From: a virus
Taxonomy: Duplodnaviria > Caudoviricetes
Length of the DNA: 57,506 nucleotides
Direction: 5' to 3' (one strand)
Virus record (IMG/VR): IMGVR_UViG_3300001336_000007
Span: 1-57,506 of that record
The position numbers and the translations under genes are program-made. Shown in pieces: positions 4,592 through 47,862 of this stretch. Under the pieces are notes generated by a model. That model was given only the letters and a program-made list of their open reading frames with translations, ran no database searches and had not been told where the DNA came from. Position 1 is the stretch's first letter. Each line of letters begins with the position of its first letter.

Positions 4592-4933
4592 ATGACAGAA
4601 ACAGACCCAACAGGCAAAGCACCATCAGACCCAGGCGCCAAGCTCGACGACGGTAAACCGAAATGCGCGCAAATTCTCCGCATGTTCTCCCGGGCATTGT
4701 GGGAAGTCTCCCGCGTCGGCACCTTCGGAGCAGCCAAGTACAGTATGGGCGGTTGGCAGTTTGTGGAGGATGGCGTCAACAGATACGCGGATGCCGAAAT
4801 GCGTCATTGGCTCAAGCGAGGCATGGGGCATGAGTTCGATGCTGATTCTGAGTTGCTGCATCTCTCGCAAGAGTGCTGGAACAAGCTCGCAGAACTGGAG
4901 CTTTACTTGCGCGAGCAGGAGGAGGACAAATGA
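4592..4933 (+). CDS. dATP/dGTP diphosphohydrolase domain protein (DUF5664)
   Basis: GAKLDDGKP...EVSRVGTFGAAKY..GGW..V..G..RYADAEMRH signature. Confidence 0.85.
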   Translation: MTETDPTGKAPSDPGAKLDDGKPKCAQILRMFSRALWEVSRVGTFGAAKYSMGGWQFVEDGVNRYADAEMRHWLKRGMGHEFDADSELLHLSQECWNKLAELELYLREQEEDK

Positions 4934-5598
4934 TTAAGGCATGTGTACTCGGATCAGGATCAAAAGGTAATTGTATCTACATCCAAGTAGACTACCAACA
5001 TCTATTGATCGACTGCGGCTTCACCAAAAAACAAACAATCTGTCGCCTGGCCATGATCGGCAGACGGCTTGAAGATATCGACAATATTTACATTACGCAC
5101 GACCACAAAGACCATTGTGCGCCGTGGATTATGAAAGAAAATCGTGTTCCGGGATTGTTGCCAAAGAATATCCGGCAATTTCCACTCTCTCACGATTCAG
5201 AATGTGTCGGCTACACCATCACCGATAAGGACGGCAATAAAGCGGTAATCGCGGTTGATACCGGCTGTATCAGCGAAGAGGCACTGAAACATTTCTTTGA
5301 TGCTTCCATGATCCTTATCGAAACGAACTACGATGTTTTTATGTTGGCCAAAGGCAAATACGGAGTTGATTTACTTGAAAGGATTGCTAGCGATAAAGGC
5401 CACCTGAGAAATGAATGTGCATCTGAGGTTATCGAGTTGGTTGATAACCAAAACCTCCGATACGTGGTGTGTATGCACATGAGCAGTAGCAATAACAATC
5501 CTGTATTGGCAAGGTTCTGTATGAAATCGACCGGGACAAAAGCAGAGGTGGTTATGAGTGAACAGAATAAGCCAACAAAACTGATGGTGGTGATATGA
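4930..5598 (+). CDS. MBL-fold metallo-hydrolase (YycJ/WalJ-like)
   Basis: LGSGSKGNC, IDCG, THDHKDH, ETNYD and GHL motifs. Confidence 0.9.
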   Translation: MIKACVLGSGSKGNCIYIQVDYQHLLIDCGFTKKQTICRLAMIGRRLEDIDNIYITHDHKDHCAPWIMKENRVPGLLPKNIRQFPLSHDSECVGYTITDKDGNKAVIAVDTGCISEEALKHFFDASMILIETNYDVFMLAKGKYGVDLLERIASDKGHLRNECASEVIELVDNQNLRYVVCMHMSSSNNNPVLARFCMKSTGTKAEVVMSEQNKPTKLMVVI

Positions 5599-33789: not shown

Positions 33790-36700
33790 ATGCCATTCGA
33801 TCCAGACAAGCCCTTCGATATAATAGAGAACAGCAACACCGGATTCGACCCGAACAAGCCCTTTGAAATAGTCGAGGATATCCCAAGGCAGACATGGGGC
33901 GGAGTTATCAAGGACACTGCCATTGACGCGGCCAAGGGTGTTGTTGGTGGCGGCAGGGCCATTGTTGGTCTTACGAATATTTTCACCGGCAACCTTGCAG
34001 GCAAGGGGTTATCGAAGGTCGGCTACGATCCAGAAGCGACAAACGAGATACTCTCATCCGGGTACAGCGACCGACGCAAATACACCAACCAGAAGGTATC
34101 CGAGGCAGAAGGCTTCTGGCCTACTATCGTTGCACTGGTCGACCATCCGTCAGTTGCCTTTGGCGCCATAGTCGAATCGGCACCAATGACCCTAACCGGA
34201 GTAGCGGCGGCACGGACAGCAGCGGTCAAGATGCTTGGTTCAGCATTGGCTAAGAACAATATCGCCGCAGGGACAGAAGCAGCAAAAGCATTTGCCGGGA
34301 AATTCTTTGCGGACAAAACGGTGCAGGGAACGCTCGTCGCGGTCGGCGCAGGAACAGAAGGCGCACAGACAGCCGGTGGAATTCAGGAGCAGGGCCGACA
34401 TGCCGGCAGATCATACGGCGAAACGATAGGACCGGCACTGGCGGCAGGACTCACCACTACCGCAATAGGCGCTGTAACCTCGAAAATACCCGGTTTGCGT
34501 GATGCAGAGGCGAGTATTGCCACGGCTGGACTCGGCGCACAGCGGTCCGGAAGTGGTATTCTTGGCTCTGCTAAAGAAGTCGGAAAGGCAATGGTCAAAG
34601 AAGGACCGATTGAAGAGAACCTTCAGTCAGGCCAGGAGCAATATTTTACCAATGTGGCCATGGGTGAAGACGATACTGCAAAAGGCGTCACAAAGGCGAT
34701 GGCAACCGGCACAGTGGTAGGTGCGATGCAGGGCGGGGGCATGAGCCTTGGTTCTGAATTGCTTAAGGCACCGATCGACAAGACCAAGCAGAGCAACCTT
34801 GGCACTATCGCGGCAAATGTCGTTGTCGAAGACCAGGAGCAGGCTACCGACGAGGTTATCGCGGAAACAGGCGGAATGGAGGATGTTATTGCAGATAATG
34901 TCACCATTATTGACCCTGCTACCGGAGAATTCACTACATCGACGGGAAAACCATTTGTCAGCGAGAGCGCCCTTCGCACTCATGCCCGGTTAAAGCATGT
35001 CGACCTGGACAACTACTCTATAACTCGGAGAGATAACGGGTTTGTCGCTGTTCCTTTTGCGAAAGAGGATATTATTGAAGGTGGTACGGATAACGCTTTT
35101 GATAGCATCGATATCACCACAGAGCAGAAGAGCGCCACTGATCCGGCCAAGGAGATCCAACAACAGCCGGACCTGGAGGACGTGAAGCGGCTCGGTCCTC
35201 ATTTGCGTGAAATGTGGGGCTCTATTGAGCAGGGAACGAATCCAGATTTCGTCAAACCGAAGGTATTAAATGATTGGGAGAAGCAGACCGGCGAACCAGT
35301 AAAGAGTTATGTGTCGTCTACCAGTGCCAAGGAAACACTTCTCGCAGTAGGCAACGGTGAGCAGCTGACCGAGGAACAGGCGAAAGTCTGGAGCTACCTG
35401 AAGAGTGTCGCCGAGAACAAGGCCATGGTTGCAGAGCAGGGCACCGGGGAGTTTTCGGCTGATTTTGGCGGGGAAGCACCAGCACCAGCGAACAACACCG
35501 AAGGGGAAAGTGACAAGGGATGGAGTGCTGTAAATAAAAAATTCACCGACTCCCCATCAAAGGAAACAGCTCAGGAGACAGGTTCTTGGTTGCTATCTAA
35601 TGCAGAAGAAGGAGACACGCTCAATTTCCCTGAAGGAGATGGGTATAAAGTAACCAGGGTAACGGTATCGAAAACAACAGGGAGGAAGTCTGTAGAATTG
35701 ATACCGTTCGATGAAAATGGCGAAGAGAATGTTCCGGCCATGATTATTTTCAACGAAGATGATCCAGGTAGTGGGGTGGTTGGTAAAATTCCAGACAATA
35801 CCCACCTGTTGCATGAGTACACCTACACCTCTGCAAGCAGCGGCGAACGGGTAACACAAAGATCACGATATGAAAAAAACATATCTGCACCAGCACCGGC
35901 CAAGCCGTCTCAGCGTACCATGGTGGACCCTGAAACCGGCGAGACATTCGATATTGATACCGGCGAGATTGTTGCGCCGGTCGAACCTGAAGGGGAACCT
36001 GTTCAACCTGTTACTCCGGATGTCTCACCGGAAGACCGTGATTTACTCGACACAAACGACATTATGAACGACTTCGCCGACTCTTCGCAGGATGGACAGT
36101 TGCGCGAAAACGAGAAGTATCGGCAGGCGAAGTTTGAACGGATGCAAAAAGACACCGAACCACAAGGAGCGATAAATGATTCTGTTCAAGAGACTGGAAA
36201 TCAGATTACTCCAGAAACCGACACACCAGCTAACCTTGAAGGAAAAGAGGGAACTGTACCTGAAGGAACGCAAGGAGATTCAGGAGCGGAGGCAGGGCCG
36301 GAAAGGAAAGGGTTGGTTGATGACTCGGGAGAGGTAGGTGGGAAAGAATTACCCGTAAAGGTCAGAGACACGCGCGGCGACACTTATTACGTGATGCAGA
36401 GCGACATTGACAATGGGAACAGAACAATACTCCCAATCTATAAAAAAGACGGCAGCAAGAGCAACCTGAAGGTACCCGCGTTACATCGAGACAATATAAA
36501 GACTGACGACGAAATCAAGGCGAATTACGACACCTACATATGGCCTTTAGACGGACAGGACGGAAAGGGGTATACGTCGGAAGCGTCAACAATCAGGGAA
36601 ATAAACAAAATAGGTCAGAAAGTCTCTGACTACGATATTGTTGAAGATAATGGAAGGTTTGTTGCGAACAGGACAAAAGCATGGCTTGACGCGCACAAAC

Positions 36701-39700
36701 AACCAGACCCAGTAACAGCCAATGAAGAAGGTGTGGCAGAGGGTAACGGGAGCGACTCCGACCGCGTAAACAATCCTTCTTCATTGGTCGAACATACAGT
36801 CAAAAAGTCCGGCAAGATCATCAAGGGTATTGTCCGTACCGATCTGACCAAGGAAGAAGCAAAAAAGATCGACCCTTACACCTTCAAAAAAGACGGCGGC
36901 TTCTTTATCCGGGAAAAGTATCTTACCGACGCTGAAAAGAATCCTGTTGTGTCTCAAGAAACGACAACAAGCCCTGTTGTGGCTCAAGAAACCGATAATG
37001 TGAGCGATAAAGGGGGTGATCAAATATCTCCTGTAGAGCCGACAGGTGAAACGGTTCAGGGAAAAAGTAATGCGCAGGTTGGAGATACAGTAAGGGGCGA
37101 GGCTGGAATTGACATGGAAGTCATATCCTCATACGCCAACCAAGACGACGCGATGAAGTCTGAAGTTTTGCTCAACAAAGACACTGGTAAGTTTCACTCA
37201 GTGTTGACCGACGTTGATTCCGGCAGCGTGGTGGGTGTCAAGATATTCAATGATAAGAAGCTCGCAGACGAAGATGCCCGTGCCAAGGCAAATCTAACGC
37301 CTACCGAAGAGCCAGCAGCCGAGAAGCCAAAAATCAAAAACAATTATTGGCAGAATGACAGCGATACCGGATGGGATGGAAAGCCTTTACCTGCAGAAGA
37401 CGAGGCTGTTGTCGGCTCACAGTCAAGCAAAACCACTGAGCAAAAACAACCAGTTAACGCAAAGGAAGAGGCTGTTGTCGGTTCTGAGTCAAGTAAAGAC
37501 CAATTCGCCAACAACAAGTTATTTACCGCCGACGCAGTAGAAGCAGCCAGGGCCAGGCTCAAGGCGAAAAGAAATTCTCTTAATGCCGGGCTCGATCCAG
37601 AACTCATTCAGGACATGCTTACCCTGGGCGGCGCATACTTCGAAGCCGGGATCAGGGATTTTGCCACATGGTCAAAGACTGTCCTGTCGGATATCGGCGA
37701 CGAATTTAAACCGTTTCTTCGCGGCACTTACGAGAATTTACGATATTACCCGGGGCTGGACACCGAAGGGATTACGTCACATGCGGATGTTGACGCCATT
37801 CTTTCAGATGAGAAAAAGTTGCTTTCTCCTGAAAAAGAACCTACTATCAAAGAAACGCAGTCAACTACAACCGATGGGGTGAACAATGGCACTTTGGCAG
37901 CAAGGAATGAGAAAGGAACGGCTGAAGATGATCGAGACGGCACTAAGGGAGACGTCACCGAAAGTGTATCACCTGATAAAAGAGGTGGAGAAGGAACTAC
38001 CGGAATTTCTGGAACTGAGGGAAGCGGCCTTAATGGAGGAATTCGAGACGGCAAGCTACCAGATGGAACAGCAGGTCAAGAAAATGGACCTGTCGCCAAT
38101 GAAGCAGGCCCAGGAAATAGAGATGCGGACAAGGATGATCTGGGAAGTAGCCCTGGCGGACAACCTAATATTCCCGGAAAGCCTCTACATGCCGGACGAG
38201 ACTACCGAATACCAGCAGGAGGAATAAAGCGGGAAGGATCCTGGAAGGCCACGGCCAAGCGCAACCTTGATATCATCGAGCTTGCCAAGAAACTTGATAA
38301 AGAAAATCGGCCGGCAACGCCAGAAGAACAAGAACTTCTCTCTCTTTATACCGGGTTCGGCGCAAGTGAGATAGCCAACAATCTTTTTCCAGGGTACGCG
38401 CAGAATGGAAAAGTTATGCCGAATTGGGCGAGAGACGAGGGCTGGAAGGAACTCGCTACCCGGCTAACGGACATTCTCACCAAAGACGAAATAAAGACCG
38501 CAGCACGGTCCACGCAGTACGCCCACTACACCAGTGAGGCTGTCATTAATTCCATATACAGCGCCCTGCAGAAGTTTGGTTTCAAGGGCGGTAAGGTTCT
38601 TGAACCAGGCGCGGGAGTGTCCTCCTTTTGGGGGCTGATACCAAAGTCCATGCACAACAATTCCAACTATACCGGAATTGAAATGGATCATGTCACGGCG
38701 CTTATAGCAAAACATCTCTATCCACAGCAGAACATACTGCGAGCTGATTTTACTCAACAGAAGCTGCCCGGTAACTTCTTTGACCTGGCTATAGGCAATC
38801 CTCCTTTCAGCGATACCAAGATAACTTCAGATCCGGACTACAAAAGAAACAAGTTCATGCTCCATGACTATTTCTTTGCCAAGTCGGTGGATAAGGTCCG
38901 TCCAGGTGGATTGCTGGTCTTTGTTACATCAAAAGGTACCATGGACAAGGGTAATGACTCAGCTCGTCAATATCTTGCAGATCGTGCTGATTTACTTGGA
39001 GCTATACGGCTACCACAGACCGCTTTCAAGCAAAATGCAGGGACGGAGGTAGTAACAGACGTCCTGTTCTTTAAAAAGCGTGAGGAAGGGCAGTTAGCAG
39101 GCGGGGAGGCATGGCTCGACCTGGGGGAAGTTACCACACCTGAAGGGCCGACGCTCATCAATGAATACTTTGTCGCTCACCCGGAAATGATTCTCGGTAC
39201 CAACTCCCTGCAGGGGACGCGGTACCGGGCGAACGAATACACGGTCCTCCCTCTTGAAGGGAACATTGAAGATCATTTCGCCAAGGCAATAGAGAATCTG
39301 CCTTCTTCGGTTTACAGCAAGGCCAAGGAAAAAGCGAAGCCGAAGAAGACCAAGAAAACCGGCAAGAAGGCGGAAAAGAGAGAGGATGTTGTCGAGTACG
39401 AGTTTGACCTGAAAAACAAGAAGGAAGGCGGGCTCTACCTCAACGACAAGGGAAAGCTCATGCGGGTGAAGAGCGGCGCGGGAATGACAGTTACCTCCCT
39501 CGACGGATTGACGGAAAAACAGATAACATGGCTGAAAGACTACGTGCCGCTACGCGATGCGGTCAAGAAAGCACAGCATGACCAACTCACAAATGGGGAT
39601 TGGGAAAAATCCCTGAAAGCACTGAACAAGGCTTACGACAAGTTTGTTGCCAAAAACGGACCTATCCACGACAATACCATCACGGAAAAGATCGTCATTG

Positions 39701-42700
39701 ATGAGGACGGGGAAAAGCAAGTCAACATCACCAAGAGATACAAGAACAAGAAGGTCATGTTCTTCGATGCCGATTCACCGGCTGTACGGGCTCTTGAAAA
39801 GGAGGATGACAACGGCAATGTAACCAAGGGGCCATTCCTTACCGGGCGCAGCATCCAGAAACCGGAAAGAAAGAAGCCGGAAACAATTGCCGACGCATTG
39901 GCGCTCAGTCTTGATTTTCACGGTGTTCTCGACCTTGCCGACATTGCCGATTCGATAGGAATAACCGAACAGGAAGCCATAGACGGGCTCGGGGATTTGA
40001 TTTACAAGAATCCGGAGGGCGCAGCCTGGGAAACCAGGGACGGCTACCTTGCGGGCGATGTCAAAGGAAAACTTGCCATAGCAAAAGCGGCGGCGGCGGC
40101 GGATAGCCAGTACGAAAGAAACGTCAAGGCATTGACCGAAGTGCAACCGGCACCGCTGAAAGCGGCTGATGTTACCGTCAAACTCGGGGTACCGTGGATC
40201 GATACCAATATCATTCAGCAGTTTGCCAGTGAGGTTTTTGGTGTCGGAGTGAGTATTGAATACTCCCCGTCGACCAACTATTACAAGGTAAGCCCCACTG
40301 GCAACAACACGGTACAGGGCGGACGCGGCGAGGCGAGCGAGTGGGCGACGCAGAGACGATCATCCATTGAATTGCTCGACAGCGTGTTGAACAACCGTAC
40401 CATCAAGGTTGTTGATACAATCGACAAGAAGACCGTACCAGACGTTACCGGGACAGTTGCGGCGAACGAAATCGCGGACAAAATGCGTAAGCGGTTCTCT
40501 TCATGGGTATGGGAAGACGCAGGCAGGGCCGGGAATATTCTTGATGAATACAACGAGAAGTATAACAACCTGTCCGGGCGTAAGTTTGATGGTTCTCATT
40601 TGACATTGCCGGGCGTGTCCTTGCGGTTCAACCTGCACCCACATCAAAAAAATGCTATCTGGCGAATCATCCAGACCGGCAATACGTACCTAGGCCATGC
40701 GGTAGGCGCCGGTAAAACCATGATCATGATTGCCGCAGGAATGGAGATGAAGCGGCTTGGCTTGGTGCACAAGCCTATTTATGTTGTCCCTAAGCATATG
40801 CTCGCGCAATTCTCCAATGAATTCCTTGAACTGTACCCCATGGCAAATATCATGGTTGCCGACGAGGAAAACTTCCATACCGACAATCGGCGCAGCTTTA
40901 TTGCCCAGGCGGCATTGAATAGCCCTGATGCGATCATTATTACTCACCCGTCACTTGCAAAGCTCGGGATGCGTCAGGAGAACATCGATGTTGTCGGCGA
41001 TGAAATGATACAGGATCTTCGTGACTCCCTGGCGGAAATGGAAGCAGACGATTCGCAGGGCAACAGGTTCCTGATTAAACGGGTAGAAAGCAGGATAGAA
41101 AAACTCGAACAGATGCTTGCCGGAATGGTAAGCCAGGATCGCGACCAATCCATGACCTTTGAGGAAATCGGCGCCGACTTCATGTTCGTCGACGAGGCGC
41201 ACGAATTCCGTAAGCTGGATTTTGCCACCAACCGGCAGGCGAAAGGTATCGACAGCAAGGGCTCAATGAAGGCAATCGATCTATTTATCAAGACGAAATG
41301 GCTCGGGACACAAAGCCCAGGACGATCACACGCCTTTGCTTCAGGTACTCCGGTAACGAACACCATGGGCGAGCTGTATAACCTGATGCGGTTCTTTATA
41401 GACGACCAGATGGAAGCCGAAGGAATCAGGCATTTTGACGCATGGGCTTCGATGTTCGGGGAAGTTGCACCTGACTTTGAACGTAACGCGGCAGGTAAAC
41501 CGGTCATTGTGGAACGATTCGCTAAATTCGTCAATGTCCCTGAATTGATGAAGCGGGTACGATCATTCATGGACGTGCTTACCTTTACCGACCTTGGTGC
41601 CTTCGTTAAGCGGCCTGATGTTTCGGGCGGTGTTCCGAAGATGGTTATCTCCAAACAATCAAAAGAACTGACGGCATACCTCAAGGGGGAATTGAGCAAC
41701 AGGATAGAAGAATCTTTAGCCTTTAAGCCGTCAAAGCAGCAACCCGGCAACCCTGACCCGATGATCAACATTATCACCGACGGACGGCTTGCCTCTATCG
41801 ATATGCGCTATATCAATCCCCGTTTACCGAATGACCCGGGCAGCAAGCTAAATACCATGATAGACGGGATCATCGAGACATGGAAGAATACCGGCGAACT
41901 CGCCTATGATGAGAAAATAGGCGGCGGCCCAAGTAAGATGAAGGGCGCGGCGCAGATTGTTTTCTTCAATCTTGGTTTCGGCGATGGGGTCAAACAGCGC
42001 GGGTTCGATGCGCGGTCCTGGATGACGAAGAGATTAAAGGAGGCGGGAATACCGGCCAGCGAAATAGGCTGGATGGAAGATGCAAATACGGCAGCCAAAA
42101 AGGACAAACTTTTCACGGCAGTAAGAAGCGGAGAGAAGAAGATAATTATCGGTTCCGCCAAACAGATGGGGACCGGTGTCAATGTGCAGAACAGGTTGCA
42201 TACCCTGCATTATATGGATGCCCCCTGGTTCCCGGCAGATGTCGAGCAGCCACTTGGCAGGATAATTAGACAGGGCAACCAGAACGAGATGATTGATATC
42301 TTCTGGTATGCAACGGAAGGTTCCTACGATTCGACCATGTGGCAGATGGTCGCCCGTAAGTCGAAGTTTATCGAACAGGCCTTCTCGGGTGACGATTCGG
42401 TTCGGTCCATTGAAGATGTTTCCGCCTCCAGTACCTACGAAATGGCGACGGCAATAGCTTCGGGGGATTCAAGGGTTATACAGCTTGCCGGCCTACGAAA
42501 CGAGATAGAGCGGCTCGAAAGACTGAAGACGGCACACGCCGACAATCAGCGAACCATGGCGTCTAATCGCAGGATGGCAGAAAACTCTCTTGCCTGGCAC
42601 GTAAGGCAGGCGAAATACCTTACCGAAGCGGCGGCCAAGGTTGGCGGCTTTATTCGTGAACCAGACGGCATTGTTGATGGAAAGTCATTTGAGAAACGGG

Positions 42701-45700
42701 CCGAACTTGGCCAGGCTATCCAGGAAAAGGTTCAGGCGAGGGTTGAAGAAGTCGGCGAAATCAAAGACAGTGCTGTTGCAAAAGATGTCGGAAAACTTAA
42801 CGGATATCCTCTTGTTGCTCTTATCGGCAGAAGGGGTGCCAATCTGCAGTTGGTCATAACCAAGAATGTTAAACTTGAGGTGAATCACGAAGGTGATGCT
42901 GCAGGACTTGTTACCCGTCTGATGAACACTCTTAATGGTGTTGCGACAAAAAAACGGGACAATGAAGGCAAGATAGAGGATTACAAGGACGAGATAGCCA
43001 AGTATGACAAAAAGCTCGGTGCGCCATACGAGCACGGAGCCGAGCTCAATCAGAAGATAGCCGAGGCGCAGCAGCTGCAAAATGAACTTACCTCAGAAGA
43101 TGACGCACCGCCGATACCGAGCGACGGCATACTGATTTCCATGGACGAAGGATTAAGCCTGGAAGAAGCCGGGCTGAGAAAAGGCCATGCTGTAAGTAAT
43201 AAAGGTGTTTCTCCCAATCGGGTGCATTGGGCAAAGGAAGCAACGGACGACGACCAGGGCCAGGCGGCGCCCAAGCAATCGCAATCCAGCCAGAAGGTAA
43301 AGAATCCCTCTTCACTTGCGGACCTGTCCCGAGATCAACGGGCGGTTATTCAGCCGATGATCGATTCAGGCGATATGGTTATGCTTTCGGCGGCAGAGGC
43401 AGAGGCGATCTTGGTTGAAGCTGGCGTGAGTGCTGAACAGGCTAAATTTATGGTTGCCTGGCATGGCTCCCCGCATGACCATGATGGATTTCGCATGGAT
43501 AAGGTTGGTACCGGCGAAGGGGCGCAAATTTACGGCCATGGTTTATATTTTGCCGGGAGCAAGGAAGTTGCAGAGTGGTATCGTAAAAAACTTGGGAAAA
43601 ACCTTGTCGCATACCTGAACGGCAAGAAGATAGCGGACCAGGCCGGATATCTTGCAACACATATAAGAAACATCATGAGTGCTTTTGATTTCAAGCAGGG
43701 CAAAGAAGATGCAATTGCCGACTTGAAATTTCGTCTTGCCGTGGAAGAGAAGAGTGTCGGTAGCGGTTGGCTGAAAGATGCAACAACACAGGATATAAAA
43801 AAGGCGATAGCAACCATAGAGGAAGCCAACGAAGGCGACATAGACGCACGAAAAGGAACTCTCTACCAAGTAGAACTAGCACCCGAACAAGAAGATTATC
43901 TTGATTGGGATAAACCTTTGAGCGAGCAGAGTGAGGTTGTTAAGGAAGCCATTCAGAACGCTTTTAACGATATTGTCAATAACGAGAGTGATTATCATAA
44001 GGCGAGCAAATTAAGCCGAGAATTGACCGTTGAAAACTTTAAAGAAAAAGACGGCAATGACATTTACAGAACCATCTCAAGAGAGCATGGTTCAGACAAA
44101 GCAGCCTCCGAATACCTCCACTCCCTGGGAATCAGAGGAATCCGCTACCTAGACGGTTCCAGCCGGGGCAAAGGTGAAGGTGATTCGAACTTTGTAATCT
44201 TCGACGAATCGGATGTGTCTATCACCGCTAAATACTCCGCAGACGGCAAGGTACAGGGTTTCGCCATGCCCGACGGCAAAGTCTACCTGATACCGGAAAA
44301 TATCGAGCAGGGTAAATTGTGGGGCGTCATCAAGCATGAGGTTGGTGTTCATGTCGGTCAAGTCCTGCATAACAACAAAGAGTTTCAAAACCTCCTTCGC
44401 AGCCTGGAAAAACGGCAATTCGAGCAGACACCGACCGGCGAGGCGTTACGCGAGGCTTTCAAGCGGGTACCGAAGAACACCAAGAAAGAGCACGTATCGG
44501 AAGAGGTTCTTGCCTACATGGTCGAGAATCATCCTGAAGTTACCCTGGTGCGCCGGGTAATCGCTCTCATCAAGCGGATCCTCTTCAAGATGGGCGTGGA
44601 TGCGAAAATATTCACAGCTGCTGATTTCGCGGCACTGGCTGATATGGCGGTGCGGGTAAATTCGATGAAGGGCGGTGCTGTCAGTACCGGGAAAGCGAAG
44701 CTACCAAAGAGTAATGACGGTACCCGCTTCTCAGTCTCCAAAGAAACACCAACCTCCCCACTCTCGACAGAATCACTCGCCGAGACAGCCGGGCAGATGG
44801 GTACTCTTACCGTTCTGAAAAACAAGAAGGTTGATTCAACGTTCCTTGACCGGATACTTTCGACCCCTGAATATTATTTCAAGAAATTTGCAGCGGCCGG
44901 CAGGGTGCTGCAGGCGGCGTTACTCCGCCGGGATATCCGCTACGAGAAGGAACAGGCGGTGCTCGGGGATTTCGTTACCTACATCAAGGAACTGCGGGAG
45001 AAGTTTAAGGATGCCTATAAGGAGGCAAACGACTACCTGTTAAATACCGATCAGACCGGCGACGGCTTCCGGATCAAAACCCTGGACAGTGGTAAGTATC
45101 AGGTGTCCAAGCCGGAATCGGCACTGACCGAAGAAGAGATCCAGGAGATAGAAGACAGTATCGACAGGACGCAATCCCCGGACAAGCAGGCCCACGACCG
45201 ATGGAAAGCCATCGAAGAAAAGCGCATTGTCGGTGAGTTTGTCGAGGAAGAGGACGGCGTAAAGGCCATGCTTGACGCAGAATCGGCACTACTCAAGGAG
45301 CGGGGCTACTCGGAAGAGGCGATCGTGGCGATCAGAAAGGGACGTGAGCTGACCAACCGGGGCTTTGATATCATGGCGGCGGACATGCGGCGGATCATCC
45401 AGGAAGCCAAGGACAATGGCCTGCCCAACCCGTTTATTGGAGACGGCAAGATTGATGAGTCCGGGCGGTACGGTGTTTATGCAGCCGGAAAGTCAAAACC
45501 GATTGCTCTCTTTGCCACACAGAAAGAGGCAAACGAGATGCTCGACAATGCCGCGCAGATGATTTCTTATGTTGTCACCAGCAGGAAAAAGGGGCGGCGG
45601 ACCTTCACCAACGAGCTGAAGGCGAAGCGATGGGCAAAAGCGCATTCGGGCACGGTGAAGGGCAACAAGGCTTTCCAGAACCTTACCGTCAAGAAACGAT

Positions 45701-47862
45701 CGGACAAGGATATGCGGCCTTTGACCGTCAAAGCGGCACTGGCACAAATGGGCGATCTTCGCGGCACGTTCTTTCCGCGAATACGTGAATCAGGGGAATA
45801 CGTGCTCATTGCCCGAAAGGACGGGGAAAATCCTATCCGGAAACATTTTGATATCCCTGCAGTCGGCGACGACAAGCCGACCTTACAGGCATTTCTAAGC
45901 AAGACAACACCGATAGGCCGCGAAATAAAGGCACTGAGGTTGCGGGGCTACAACGTCACCACCGAGAAGGACAAGTCACCGAGTGAAGATGTCTTCGAGG
46001 CGACCAACCTCATTACCTCCCTTGATGCGCTCCTGCAAAGTTCCATGGAGGTTGTCAACAAGAACGAGGACATGAGCGTCAAGGCCGGGCAGCATATCAA
46101 CAAGATTCTCACTATGCAAATTGCCGATATCTTCAAGTCCCGCGGTTATCTGTCGAGCAGATTGAAACGGCTTGCCGGGGATGAGGTGTGGGAAGGCTAC
46201 GAAGAGGACATGGGCAAGGCCCTAACTCAATACGGGAAGAGCGTTGCAGCCGGTACCGCCAAACGTGATACTGCCCGGGCAATGGTTCTGGCCTTTTCCG
46301 GGCGCGACTACACCTGGGAGCAGTACAAGACCGATGTCGAGAAGCCGGAGTGGGCGGAATACCAGCGGATCGTTGAAGAGCGCAGGATTGACGAGAGAAC
46401 ACAAAAAAACCTTTTCAGGGATGTGCGGTCTTTCATGATCGATATCTTGAGAAACGACGAGCAGGTAGACCGGATAATCGGCACACTCAAGGGGCTTGCG
46501 GTGTTGAAGTATCTTGGCTTCCGGGTAAGTTCGGCGGCGGTGAACTTAACCAATATGGCGCAGGGTGTCCCGGCCACCATTTCCGGCCATACCGGCGAAT
46601 CACTCACCAAGGCTATAGGCCGGGTCATATCGGCGGCGACCGCTTACGGGAAATATCGTTTAGGTAAAGATATCAGCGACGACGACCGTAAAATATTCGA
46701 GTACATCTCCGCCAAAGGGTGGGATGAAGCGCAATTCAACCACGAAGCGGCAAGCGAATTGCGCGGAAAATTGGGTGAAGGCTGGAATAAATTCATGACT
46801 GCCGGCATGTATATGTTTGGTGCGGCCGAGAAAGTCAACCGGGCGACAACCCTGTTTGCCGCTTACAAGGCCGTGGATGCGAAAGAAACAACGGCGGAAG
46901 AGTCGGTCAAATGGGAGAAGGCGAAAGAGATCAGCGACCGGGCGCACGGTGTTTACGGCAAAGAAACCATTCCGGCATGGGCACGGGGGAAATACAATAT
47001 CCTGCGATTGACGTATCTCTTCCAGAAATTTTCCCACAACTACATGCTGAATATGATCGATCTTGGATTCAATAGGAAAGAATACAAAGCTGCTGCGTAT
47101 ATGCTCCTATCTCCTGCGCTTCTGGCCGGGTCCAGTGCATCGTTGGCCGGTCCCGTATTATTTGCTCTTGCCGGTGCGTTCGGTATCGGCGGTGACGATC
47201 CTGAAGAAGCCTGGTACAAATGGGCGGAAGATACTTTTGGCGCGGGGGATTATGCCCGTCATGGCGTTTTCGGTGGCCTGGTCGGTGTCAACATCAAGGG
47301 TAGTCTGCAGATGAATAACCCGATGCCAACCTCCTTAACTGAACTTGTCGGAGCAGCTGGCGGAGTGGTGGCGGACACCGGCAAGGGTATCAATCATTTG
47401 TTTCATGGCGAGCTGGCCAAGGGCGCCGAAATGCTCTTACCGACCGCCTTTGGTTCCTGGTCAAAATCTATCCGGGAAGGAAGAGAGGGAATAACGACCA
47501 GTAATTACGGCTCGGTATTCTACGGTGACGAGCCCTTGAAGGCGGACGCGGCGGACCAGATTATCAGGTTCCTGTCGTTCAATCCTTCGCGGATATCCGG
47601 GATAAGAGAAAAACAGTGGAATGAGAAAGAGGTTGCGGCCGGGTACCAGGGAGACAGGGCCGAGATTTATTCGAGCATCAAGCGGCGGCATCTTCAGGGC
47701 AAGTCGATCACGCCGGAGATATACAAGGCCATCTACAAGTATAATGAGCGGGTAAAGAGATCGGGGAGAAAAGATATTTCTCTTATTACGCCAAAAAATA
47801 TAAGGATCATGATGAAGAGGAATAGCAAACCGAACAGGACAGAAAGGTACCGGGATATTTAA
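33790..47862 (+). CDS. Giant polyvalent ejection protein: N6-adenine MTase + SNF2 helicase (DarB-like) + ART-like/LPD + zincin-like + PLxRFG-type C-terminus
   Basis: 4690 aa; VLEPGAG and IGNPPF; HAVGAGKT, VDEAH, QPLGRIIRQGN; WHGSPH..GTGEGAQIYGHGLYF; KHEVGVH. Confidence 0.9.
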   Translation: MPFDPDKPFDIIENSNTGFDPNKPFEIVEDIPRQTWGGVIKDTAIDAAKGVVGGGRAIVGLTNIFTGNLAGKGLSKVGYDPEATNEILSSGYSDRRKYTNQKVSEAEGFWPTIVALVDHPSVAFGAIVESAPMTLTGVAAARTAAVKMLGSALAKNNIAAGTEAAKAFAGKFFADKTVQGTLVAVGAGTEGAQTAGGIQEQGRHAGRSYGETIGPALAAGLTTTAIGAVTSKIPGLRDAEASIATAGLGAQRSGSGILGSAKEVGKAMVKEGPIEENLQSGQEQYFTNVAMGEDDTAKGVTKAMATGTVVGAMQGGGMSLGSELLKAPIDKTKQSNLGTIAANVVVEDQEQATDEVIAETGGMEDVIADNVTIIDPATGEFTTSTGKPFVSESALRTHARLKHVDLDNYSITRRDNGFVAVPFAKEDIIEGGTDNAFDSIDITTEQKSATDPAKEIQQQPDLEDVKRLGPHLREMWGSIEQGTNPDFVKPKVLNDWEKQTGEPVKSYVSSTSAKETLLAVGNGEQLTEEQAKVWSYLKSVAENKAMVAEQGTGEFSADFGGEAPAPANNTEGESDKGWSAVNKKFTDSPSKETAQETGSWLLSNAEEGDTLNFPEGDGYKVTRVTVSKTTGRKSVELIPFDENGEENVPAMIIFNEDDPGSGVVGKIPDNTHLLHEYTYTSASSGERVTQRSRYEKNISAPAPAKPSQRTMVDPETGETFDIDTGEIVAPVEPEGEPVQPVTPDVSPEDRDLLDTNDIMNDFADSSQDGQLRENEKYRQAKFERMQKDTEPQGAINDSVQETGNQITPETDTPANLEGKEGTVPEGTQGDSGAEAGPERKGLVDDSGEVGGKELPVKVRDTRGDTYYVMQSDIDNGNRTILPIYKKDGSKSNLKVPALHRDNIKTDDEIKANYDTYIWPLDGQDGKGYTSEASTIREINKIGQKVSDYDIVEDNGRFVANRTKAWLDAHKQPDPVTANEEGVAEGNGSDSDRVNNPSSLVEHTVKKSGKIIKGIVRTDLTKEEAKKIDPYTFKKDGGFFIREKYLTDAEKNPVVSQETTTSPVVAQETDNVSDKGGDQISPVEPTGETVQGKSNAQVGDTVRGEAGIDMEVISSYANQDDAMKSEVLLNKDTGKFHSVLTDVDSGSVVGVKIFNDKKLADEDARAKANLTPTEEPAAEKPKIKNNYWQNDSDTGWDGKPLPAEDEAVVGSQSSKTTEQKQPVNAKEEAVVGSESSKDQFANNKLFTADAVEAARARLKAKRNSLNAGLDPELIQDMLTLGGAYFEAGIRDFATWSKTVLSDIGDEFKPFLRGTYENLRYYPGLDTEGITSHADVDAILSDEKKLLSPEKEPTIKETQSTTTDGVNNGTLAARNEKGTAEDDRDGTKGDVTESVSPDKRGGEGTTGISGTEGSGLNGGIRDGKLPDGTAGQENGPVANEAGPGNRDADKDDLGSSPGGQPNIPGKPLHAGRDYRIPAGGIKREGSWKATAKRNLDIIELAKKLDKENRPATPEEQELLSLYTGFGASEIANNLFPGYAQNGKVMPNWARDEGWKELATRLTDILTKDEIKTAARSTQYAHYTSEAVINSIYSALQKFGFKGGKVLEPGAGVSSFWGLIPKSMHNNSNYTGIEMDHVTALIAKHLYPQQNILRADFTQQKLPGNFFDLAIGNPPFSDTKITSDPDYKRNKFMLHDYFFAKSVDKVRPGGLLVFVTSKGTMDKGNDSARQYLADRADLLGAIRLPQTAFKQNAGTEVVTDVLFFKKREEGQLAGGEAWLDLGEVTTPEGPTLINEYFVAHPEMILGTNSLQGTRYRANEYTVLPLEGNIEDHFAKAIENLPSSVYSKAKEKAKPKKTKKTGKKAEKREDVVEYEFDLKNKKEGGLYLNDKGKLMRVKSGAGMTVTSLDGLTEKQITWLKDYVPLRDAVKKAQHDQLTNGDWEKSLKALNKAYDKFVAKNGPIHDNTITEKIVIDEDGEKQVNITKRYKNKKVMFFDADSPAVRALEKEDDNGNVTKGPFLTGRSIQKPERKKPETIADALALSLDFHGVLDLADIADSIGITEQEAIDGLGDLIYKNPEGAAWETRDGYLAGDVKGKLAIAKAAAAADSQYERNVKALTEVQPAPLKAADVTVKLGVPWIDTNIIQQFASEVFGVGVSIEYSPSTNYYKVSPTGNNTVQGGRGEASEWATQRRSSIELLDSVLNNRTIKVVDTIDKKTVPDVTGTVAANEIADKMRKRFSSWVWEDAGRAGNILDEYNEKYNNLSGRKFDGSHLTLPGVSLRFNLHPHQKNAIWRIIQTGNTYLGHAVGAGKTMIMIAAGMEMKRLGLVHKPIYVVPKHMLAQFSNEFLELYPMANIMVADEENFHTDNRRSFIAQAALNSPDAIIITHPSLAKLGMRQENIDVVGDEMIQDLRDSLAEMEADDSQGNRFLIKRVESRIEKLEQMLAGMVSQDRDQSMTFEEIGADFMFVDEAHEFRKLDFATNRQAKGIDSKGSMKAIDLFIKTKWLGTQSPGRSHAFASGTPVTNTMGELYNLMRFFIDDQMEAEGIRHFDAWASMFGEVAPDFERNAAGKPVIVERFAKFVNVPELMKRVRSFMDVLTFTDLGAFVKRPDVSGGVPKMVISKQSKELTAYLKGELSNRIEESLAFKPSKQQPGNPDPMINIITDGRLASIDMRYINPRLPNDPGSKLNTMIDGIIETWKNTGELAYDEKIGGGPSKMKGAAQIVFFNLGFGDGVKQRGFDARSWMTKRLKEAGIPASEIGWMEDANTAAKKDKLFTAVRSGEKKIIIGSAKQMGTGVNVQNRLHTLHYMDAPWFPADVEQPLGRIIRQGNQNEMIDIFWYATEGSYDSTMWQMVARKSKFIEQAFSGDDSVRSIEDVSASSTYEMATAIASGDSRVIQLAGLRNEIERLERLKTAHADNQRTMASNRRMAENSLAWHVRQAKYLTEAAAKVGGFIREPDGIVDGKSFEKRAELGQAIQEKVQARVEEVGEIKDSAVAKDVGKLNGYPLVALIGRRGANLQLVITKNVKLEVNHEGDAAGLVTRLMNTLNGVATKKRDNEGKIEDYKDEIAKYDKKLGAPYEHGAELNQKIAEAQQLQNELTSEDDAPPIPSDGILISMDEGLSLEEAGLRKGHAVSNKGVSPNRVHWAKEATDDDQGQAAPKQSQSSQKVKNPSSLADLSRDQRAVIQPMIDSGDMVMLSAAEAEAILVEAGVSAEQAKFMVAWHGSPHDHDGFRMDKVGTGEGAQIYGHGLYFAGSKEVAEWYRKKLGKNLVAYLNGKKIADQAGYLATHIRNIMSAFDFKQGKEDAIADLKFRLAVEEKSVGSGWLKDATTQDIKKAIATIEEANEGDIDARKGTLYQVELAPEQEDYLDWDKPLSEQSEVVKEAIQNAFNDIVNNESDYHKASKLSRELTVENFKEKDGNDIYRTISREHGSDKAASEYLHSLGIRGIRYLDGSSRGKGEGDSNFVIFDESDVSITAKYSADGKVQGFAMPDGKVYLIPENIEQGKLWGVIKHEVGVHVGQVLHNNKEFQNLLRSLEKRQFEQTPTGEALREAFKRVPKNTKKEHVSEEVLAYMVENHPEVTLVRRVIALIKRILFKMGVDAKIFTAADFAALADMAVRVNSMKGGAVSTGKAKLPKSNDGTRFSVSKETPTSPLSTESLAETAGQMGTLTVLKNKKVDSTFLDRILSTPEYYFKKFAAAGRVLQAALLRRDIRYEKEQAVLGDFVTYIKELREKFKDAYKEANDYLLNTDQTGDGFRIKTLDSGKYQVSKPESALTEEEIQEIEDSIDRTQSPDKQAHDRWKAIEEKRIVGEFVEEEDGVKAMLDAESALLKERGYSEEAIVAIRKGRELTNRGFDIMAADMRRIIQEAKDNGLPNPFIGDGKIDESGRYGVYAAGKSKPIALFATQKEANEMLDNAAQMISYVVTSRKKGRRTFTNELKAKRWAKAHSGTVKGNKAFQNLTVKKRSDKDMRPLTVKAALAQMGDLRGTFFPRIRESGEYVLIARKDGENPIRKHFDIPAVGDDKPTLQAFLSKTTPIGREIKALRLRGYNVTTEKDKSPSEDVFEATNLITSLDALLQSSMEVVNKNEDMSVKAGQHINKILTMQIADIFKSRGYLSSRLKRLAGDEVWEGYEEDMGKALTQYGKSVAAGTAKRDTARAMVLAFSGRDYTWEQYKTDVEKPEWAEYQRIVEERRIDERTQKNLFRDVRSFMIDILRNDEQVDRIIGTLKGLAVLKYLGFRVSSAAVNLTNMAQGVPATISGHTGESLTKAIGRVISAATAYGKYRLGKDISDDDRKIFEYISAKGWDEAQFNHEAASELRGKLGEGWNKFMTAGMYMFGAAEKVNRATTLFAAYKAVDAKETTAEESVKWEKAKEISDRAHGVYGKETIPAWARGKYNILRLTYLFQKFSHNYMLNMIDLGFNRKEYKAAAYMLLSPALLAGSSASLAGPVLFALAGAFGIGGDDPEEAWYKWAEDTFGAGDYARHGVFGGLVGVNIKGSLQMNNPMPTSLTELVGAAGGVVADTGKGINHLFHGELAKGAEMLLPTAFGSWSKSIREGREGITTSNYGSVFYGDEPLKADAADQIIRFLSFNPSRISGIREKQWNEKEVAAGYQGDRAEIYSSIKRRHLQGKSITPEIYKAIYKYNERVKRSGRKDISLITPKNIRIMMKRNSKPNRTERYRDI
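36176..36337 (+). CDS. Nested +1-frame ORF (53 aa, basic helical) inside the giant gene
   Basis: AAGGAG-N6-ATG; MILFKRLEIRLLQKPTHQLTLKEKRELYLKERKEIQERRQGRKGKGWLMTRER; host frame is a disordered linker here. Confidence 0.45.
   Translation: MILFKRLEIRLLQKPTHQLTLKEKRELYLKERKEIQERRQGRKGKGWLMTRER
37886..38227 (+). CDS. Nested +1-frame ORF (113 aa, TnpV-like helical protein) inside the giant gene
   Basis: GGGGTGA SD; amphipathic sequence LRETSPKVYHLI...ELPEFLELREAALMEEF...RMIWEVALADNLIFP; host frame is G/D/T-rich over the same span. Confidence 0.65.
   Translation: MALWQQGMRKERLKMIETALRETSPKVYHLIKEVEKELPEFLELREAALMEEFETASYQMEQQVKKMDLSPMKQAQEIEMRTRMIWEVALADNLIFPESLYMPDETTEYQQEE

Follow-up and report, generated by a model that had tools for sequence, protein, structure and literature searches.

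The window analysed here comprises the whole 57,506 nucleotides (nt) of the IMG/VR virus record IMGVR_UViG_3300001336_000007 (Duplodnaviria; Caudoviricetes), and it contains a giant open reading frame (ORF) that codes for a DarB-like polyvalent protein. Inside this ORF, on the same strand and one base out of frame, lies a second ORF of 113 codons, here called X. We put the probability that X is a real, separately started gene nested in the giant DarB-like gene at roughly 85%. The initial annotation, which was drawn from the sequence alone, had proposed that a real gene, translated on its own, is read through by the giant one. This proposal is supported by the comparisons reported below: the frame, start codon and Shine-Dalgarno sequence of X are conserved, the phase of substitutions follows the +1 frame, and the predicted product belongs to a family of small proteins and has a confidently predicted fold.

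Position, conservation and selection of the nested frame

X begins with an ATG at 37886-37888 and ends with a TAA at 38225-38227. Its first base is offset from that of the giant ORF by 4096 nt (37886-33790 = 4096 = 3x1365+1), which places it in the +1 frame; it is complete and lies wholly inside the longer ORF, in a different frame of the same strand, as is the case for a nested gene. The stop codon falls 30 nt past the conserved start of the methyltransferase module at 38197, where the block 'DYRI...GSW...NLDIIEL' begins. Over the same DNA, the translation of the giant frame is rich in G, D, T, E and N, lacks hydrophobic runs, and has GRDYRIPAGGI at its C-terminal end. On re-reading the sequence, every detail given earlier for the 113-codon +1-frame ORF and its GGGGTGA was correct. 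The translation and the conserved block at 38197 likewise agree with the earlier description of a low-complexity G/D/T/E host frame and of an ORF that ends where the methyltransferase begins.

A search of the X product against 5.8 billion proteins returned four called proteins of 113-114 amino acids (aa), which are 65-71% identical to it over 96-100% of the query. A metagenome scan for relatives of X yielded the loci L001 (68% identity) and L002 (33%). In addition, 27 viral loci were obtained from viral contigs with the N-terminus of the methyltransferase only, a query that is blind to X; many loci are near-duplicates, and about 17 are non-redundant. An X-like ORF was found in 25 of these 27 viral loci (family hidden Markov model (HMM), E 2e-13 to 3.5e-4), always in the +1 frame and always ending at the start of the methyltransferase. 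Beyond these ORFs, the same HMM had no match at E<=1 in the window or the loci on which it was run, translated in all six frames. The layout of the window recurs in L001, L002, L032, L034, L036, and L037. Scans of viral and genome contigs with alignment A1 gave no confirmed relative, and tblastn of the window X peptide against phage records gave nothing at E<=10. With the X of locus L005 as the query, tblastn matched 41 phage records; the 40 listed include the Burkholderia phages Bcep22, BcepIL02, DC1, BcepMigl, JC1, and CSP3, as well as 31 Ralstonia phage records. In each of these 40 a single product name covers the match, either 'hypothetical protein' or that of a DarB-like antirestriction or multidomain protein. 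In the records of Bcep22 and Ralstonia phage Gerry, the giant coding sequence (CDS) is the sole feature there and no small CDS is annotated. The expectation that gene callers would miss X is thus borne out in these records.

The start signals of X are conserved as well, as the initial annotation had suggested checking in homologs. An ATG stands at the aligned start of X in 25 of the 25 loci listed. Among the 17 non-redundant loci, 14 have GGAG or GAGG at -17 to -5 of this start and 12 have a 5-mer core; the background frequency is 4.9% (5-mer 1.3%) for 2608 ATGs inside giant ORFs and 8.1% (1.6%) for 186 nearby ATGs.

Two relatives of X were found outside giant ORFs. One (L033:6968-7267) lies near an RHS-repeat gene and an insertion sequence (IS) transposase (rve) in a Desulfospira assembly, and the other (L035:6971-7276) comes from a deltaproteobacterial assembly, where it directly follows a Type ISP-like N6-methylase gene. 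In L001 (positions 1-540) the giant gene is split: the upstream part stops near position 170, and a new large ORF opens at 219. Its first 106 codons encode a helical N-terminus that is unrelated, after which the ORF crosses X and enters the methyltransferase. It is thus to the methyltransferase-helicase gene, and not to the N-terminal part, that X remains attached.

Other arrangements of X were also seen. In P0048 and P0085, X is joined in frame with the 'YYPGL(D/E)T.GM' domain, which in the window lies ahead of X in the giant frame; X follows this domain in P0048 and precedes it in P0085, so X and the YYPGL domain travel together in more than one arrangement. P0052, P0062, and P0066 are chimeric, in that the X reading switches to or from the giant-frame reading partway; P0066, for example, passes from the C-terminus of X into 'GGIKREGSWKE'. 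These three probably reflect frameshift errors in short assemblies, natural frame switches being the alternative.

To examine the two frames separately, mismatches were counted by codon position in nucleotide alignments made without regard to frame. Between the window and L001, the mismatches in the overlap at giant-frame positions 1, 2, and 3 number 49, 24, and 22 (p=8e-4), and position 1 is the wobble position of X; in the methyltransferase flank the counts are 79, 52, and 279, with the peak at giant-frame position 3. Two other pairs gave 18/8/8 (L005-L009) and 26/20/12 (L005-L004) in the overlap. The amino-acid identity between the window and L001 is 67% in the X frame, 45% in the giant frame, and 44% in the +2 control, which means that the giant frame over X is conserved no better than a non-coding frame. 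Of 16 pairs, which are not mutually independent, 15 score higher in the X frame than in the giant frame. Mean column identity is 34% for X versus 58% for the methyltransferase; X is therefore the faster-evolving of the two. Taken together, the alignments indicate that X is kept by purifying selection.

The giant frame over X is also held open by selection, without a conserved sequence, and serves as a probably disordered linker. When the X protein was fixed and its synonymous codons were resampled, only 0.06% of trials left the giant frame of the window open (P=0.0006), and the corresponding values are 0.0002 for L001 and 0.0018 for L002; in GC-rich relatives it was open in 12-28% of resamplings. 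In 26 of the 27 viral loci the giant frame extends without interruption over at least 856 codons ahead of the methyltransferase (the exception, L003, is truncated by its contig end), and indels across the region are whole codons. The improbable openness, the upstream continuity, and the whole-codon indels therefore point to true dual coding and not to a gene that lies between two genes.

Table 1. Coordinates of the giant gene, the nested ORF, and the associated features in the window.
Feature	Position	Strand	Remarks
Giant ORF, 4690 codons, DarB-like polyvalent protein	33790-47862	+	Host frame ('frame 0')
Shine-Dalgarno-like GGGGTGA	37876-37882	+	Its TGA (37880-37882) is the +1-frame stop that bounds X upstream
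Giant-frame linker over X, about residues 1366-1469	37885-38196	+	Hydrophilic, poorly conserved, probably disordered
Putative nested gene X, 113 codons + TAA	37886-38227	+	+1 frame of the giant ORF; acidic product with four predicted helices, TnpV superfamily
Conserved methyltransferase module (RDYRIPAGGIKREGSW...NLDIIEL...NPPF region)	38197-39666	+	From Pfam, PHROGs, and alignment; overlaps the last 10 codons of X

The giant ORF matches phrog_10089 ('DarB-like antirestriction') in PHROGs at 1876.8 bits, and the match begins at giant residue 1457. In Pfam, an Eco57I methylase was matched at residues 1653-1733 and ResIII/SNF2/Helicase_C, with superfamily 2 (SF2) helicase motifs, at 2280-2829. 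The giant protein of phage JC1 was found to be virion-associated by mass spectrometry, according to PMC9144972. Two further +1-frame ORFs were observed in the window. One, with 99 codons and an ATG (37583-37882), ends one codon before the ATG of X; it overlaps the well-conserved 'YYPGLDTEG' of the giant frame and was assumed to be due to chance. The other is a mini-ORF of 53 codons (36176-36337) in another linker of the giant gene. No relatives of this mini-ORF were found in any fetched locus (best tblastn match, E=2.0), and the idea that nested genes are a repeated design in other linkers was dropped as unsupported.

Protein family and predicted structure of the X product

A profile built from seven sequences retrieved 141 cluster representatives at E<=1e-3, 46 of them at E<=1e-10, from 1.84 billion proteins, and almost all have lengths of 85-165 aa. 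Adding the window peptide and three other close relatives gives 145 sequences, which form one BLASTP single-linkage cluster at 1e-6. A near-length profile search with alignment A3 gave 12 matches, none with a Pfam label. Profile searches at longer lengths scored no fused long forms of X, which is weak evidence. Judging from these sequences and the predicted structure, the family of X is widespread, acidic, helical, and about 100-115 residues in length.

The initial annotation had described X as TnpV-like, and this description holds at the level of profiles and fails as a direct Pfam match. The window X peptide did not match the TnpV family (PF14198) at E<=10, hence it lies below the 27-bit gathering cut-off, and scans of it against Pfam, PHROGs, and NCBIfam found neither TnpV nor any other meaningful match. 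When 20 relatives were scanned singly, TnpV was the top sub-threshold match for nine; the matches are colinear, for example from protein positions 15-90 to profile positions 28-106. The best nested relative, that of L002, reached 23.4 bits (E 6.1e-5), below the same cut-off. Within the family of 145, 29 members match TnpV at E<=0.01 (best 2e-12), and every other family is matched by at most one member. Three members found by the X profile, P0138 (47.5 bits), P0116 (45.1), and P0126 (32.4), exceed the curated cut-off of 27 bits. In hhalign, the close family of X (A2) was aligned to seven TnpV-matching members (A5) with a probability of 99.1% (E 1.3e-18, 86 columns), where A5 was itself drawn from matches of X's own profile, so that membership runs via profiles and intermediates. 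In the two best-scoring clusters of the ESM Atlas (scores 0.85 and 0.82), 22% and 19% of the members carry TnpV, which we take as a lead only. A search for a nested bona fide TnpV with PF14198 in four genomes and 14 control genomes gave no match, and neither did tblastn searches of plasmids with P0138 and P0116 or of phages with P0138 and the X of L036. These results support X as a divergent branch of the TnpV superfamily and not as a Pfam-level member.

AlphaFold predicted the X product as four helices (6-23, 25-35, 38-65, and 71-93) with a predicted local distance difference test (pLDDT) score of 93.6 and a predicted template modeling (pTM) score of 0.81. The giant-frame reading of the same DNA was modeled with a pLDDT of 52.8, a pTM of 0.11, and no secondary structure, a contrast that is only indicative given the unequal depth of the alignments (145 versus 16 rows). 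With the X model as the query, Foldseek found no match at E<=0.001 in either the PDB or BFVD, and the X profile found nothing below E 0.26 among PDB sequences. The X of the window has a net charge of -10 and an isoelectric point (pI) of 4.67; the family has a median net charge of -4 and a median pI of 5.04, and 86% of 118 members have a pI below 6. A role as a DNA mimic was weighed on this basis, but the acidity of X is much less than that of Ocr or ArdA. A predicted complex of X with the methyltransferase module (496 + 113 residues) scored 0.00, which gives no verdict on binding either way.

Alternative explanations

Several observations weigh against the reading of X as a nested gene. The length and openness of X alone are nothing special. 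In the two sense alternative frames of the giant gene there are five open stretches of 108-114 codons, and the opposite strand has longer ones. The T content is 14.9% in the X span versus 19.6% in the whole giant gene, and a hydrophilic linker is open in the +1 frame almost for free because a +1 stop needs a T at position 2 of a giant codon, i.e., a hydrophobic residue. When the linker protein was kept constant and synonymous codons were redrawn according to the codon usage of the gene, 12.6% of 5000 trials left the +1 frame of the window open (P = 0.13); in GC-rich relatives the share was 64-94%. In L027 and L028, junk-like +1 stretches of 83 and 88 codons are open at the same place (about 4741-5028); they match nothing, and no X-like protein was found there. 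Furthermore, the GGGGTGA of the window is weaker than the Shine-Dalgarno sequences of the relatives and fails the k-mer test, though it agrees at 7 of 9 places with the longer consensus AAGGAGGTGA. Diverged pairs are flat in substitution phase (L005-L011, for example, 39/40/39), and the stand-alone relatives amount to two cases, both in mobile or decayed contexts. The missing Pfam and structural matches and the qualifications attached above to the TnpV-side alignment and the fold contrast belong here too. Support for X as a gene comes from comparison and a predicted fold, from which we infer its translation. The chance results are what would be seen if X were a shadow ORF, open merely since the linker is hydrophilic and T-poor, whose E/L/M-rich 'protein' is a by-product that is never made. 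Such a by-product would not explain why the X frame is conserved above both the giant frame and the +2 control, why substitutions peak at the wobble position of X, or why the ATG and the Shine-Dalgarno sequence are kept; nor would it account for 141 family clusters that include members passing the Pfam TnpV threshold, for relatives outside giant ORFs, or for the pLDDT of the X model. We therefore consider a shadow ORF extremely improbable.

Three other explanations accept X as coding and place it differently. X could be an ordinary gene between two genes, with the giant frame accidentally open there, untranslated, and no dual coding. The separate upstream gene of L001 fits this idea, as does the frequency with which the giant frame stays open by chance in the GC-rich relatives. 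However, in the three mid-GC loci that probability is 0.0002-0.0018, the upstream continuity and whole-codon indels are those of a single coding frame, and the DYRI block starts before the stop of X, so a downstream start would cut the methyltransferase module; the large ORF of L001, too, begins 106 codons ahead of X. This explanation is accordingly very unlikely. We hold equally little belief in production of X by ribosomal frameshifting, which would fuse the N-terminal 1365 giant residues to the X domain. The +1 frame is indeed open far upstream of the ATG in several relatives (30 codons in L005, 96 in L006, and 63 in L021, for example), and P0048 has X in frame after a 'YYPGLETDG' motif, which precedes X in the window. 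A frameshift fusion is nevertheless unlikely because the +1 frame has a stop one codon ahead of the ATG in the window and L001, and three ahead of it in L013, leaving no room for a shift site; moreover, the ATG and a Shine-Dalgarno sequence at the right spacing are conserved. Finally, membership in the TnpV superfamily would be compatible with X as an Xis-like DNA-binding excision or recombination factor, as first postulated for TnpV of Tn4451, that is unrelated to the giant protein. The acidity of X and its family argues against a basic DNA binder of this kind. X is also located in a virion/ejection gene and not beside a recombinase, its place at the methyltransferase start is kept in 25 of the 27 loci, and its fold matches neither Xis nor any other solved structure at E<=0.001. 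We judge an Xis-like role improbable, and a nested gene remains the preferred reading of X.

Base composition was considered as a gene signature and then given less weight. For all 12 of the 12 GC-rich loci, GC content in the overlap at the three giant-frame codon positions (about 0.87/0.63/0.45) is the canonical pattern of the flank (0.65/0.45/0.90) moved into the X frame. When loci were scanned for a collapse of GC at the third position (GC3) of the giant frame, X was picked in four of four, and so were other Ala/Pro/Gly-rich linkers with junk +1 frames. The shifted pattern is thus consistent with a gene and not specific to one, which counts against its use as decisive evidence. Linkers of this type were seen at L005:2799-3099, L014:2916-3246, and L016:1653-2013, where GC3 drops to about 0.5 from 0.9 and the +1 frames are Arg/Pro-rich junk. 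L027 and L028 themselves are more distant giant genes (methyltransferase 39-44% identical) with a hydrophilic linker, and may represent a natural negative control or a possible loss of X.

Possible origin, role, and relation to known systems

X may be the older of the two readings because relatives of X exist outside giant genes, and the giant gene would then have come to read through X. The frame used for such a read-through would be the one whose first codon position is the wobble position of X; it would consist mostly of codons for G, A, D, E, R, and P, would yield mainly hydrophilic residues, and would contain few stops. Ribosomes would start X internally on the giant mRNA and end it where the methyltransferase module begins.

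Our best guess, though we would not count on it, is that the target of X is the methyltransferase-helicase part encoded by the same transcript, for which X would be a helper in folding, assembly, loading, or packaging or a brake on activity, by analogy with the accessory proteins of P1 DarB. What speaks for such a partnership is the fixed position of X directly before the methyltransferase module, and from this single feature a partner role can be suggested only tentatively. A wider scenario is more speculative still and somewhat doubtful. In it, giant DarB-like genes would have arisen by read-through fusion across an ancestral free-standing tnpV-like gene, the nesting would persist because it has a function, X, started internally where the methyltransferase-helicase emerges, would act in cis as its dedicated chaperone, packaging adaptor, or safety catch, and X would be the missing Dar-type accessory factor of the Bcep22-like and related phages. 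If true, a cis-acting X would give the uncharacterized TnpV family its first function.

Phages and bacteria have few long same-strand nested genes that are well supported, and such genes are discarded by annotation pipelines. X appears to be a member of an ancient family in dual-coding DNA across distantly related phages, cultured Burkholderia phages among them. It is a concrete candidate for an accessory factor of DarB-like anti-restriction proteins and offers a route to a function for TnpV (PF14198), for which none is established. The case may also illustrate how genes can fuse across one that lies between them, with the hydrophilic, stop-poor shadow frame of the latter as a linker. Word searches of the open-access literature, with supplementary files outside their scope, found no earlier description of a nested X. 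Nested same-strand genes, such as Rz1 in Rz, and the TnpV family are already known; what is new, as far as we found, is that they are combined, how broadly this combination occurs, and an origin by read-through.

Among known systems, the giant gene itself is one of the DarB-like polyvalent proteins described by Iyer et al. (2017, PMC5512222), with a methyltransferase, an SF2 helicase, and further domains in one polypeptide. A term search of the main text of that paper found no mention of TnpV, overlapping, frameshift, or alternative frame, which suggests that the nested gene is not covered there. With TnpV of the mobilizable transposons Tn4451 and Tn4453 (Clostridium), X shares a size of about 100-125 aa (the Pfam model has 111 positions), an all-helical character, carriage on mobile elements, and homology at the profile level; X has 113 aa and four predicted helices, and the window is a virus record. 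In Tn4451 and Tn6104, TnpV is free-standing beside a large serine recombinase (TnpX), and its function is only postulated (PMC3158075). X, by contrast, is nested in a giant virion gene.

The accessory proteins of the P1 Dar system (DarA, Hdf, DdrA, DdrB, and Ulx) are small proteins needed alongside DarB, and X is likewise small, conserved, and encoded with a DarB-like gene in these Burkholderia and Ralstonia phages. The P1 proteins are encoded by separate genes, whereas X is nested, and the proposed likeness between them is one of role. PMC9144972 reports that no homologs of the P1 accessory proteins were found in these phages. The closest parallel in layout is Rz1 inside Rz, of the lambda type and of the Bcep22-like phages, which is also a complete gene within another on the same strand and in another frame of a tailed phage. 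Rz and Rz1 are known partners, whereas a partnership between X and the giant protein can only be surmised. The two cases also differ in that the host gene of X is about 14 kb long and the shared DNA encodes a probably disordered linker in the host frame. In addition, X comes from an old family that also occurs outside giant genes, and so it is the host frame that looks like the newcomer.

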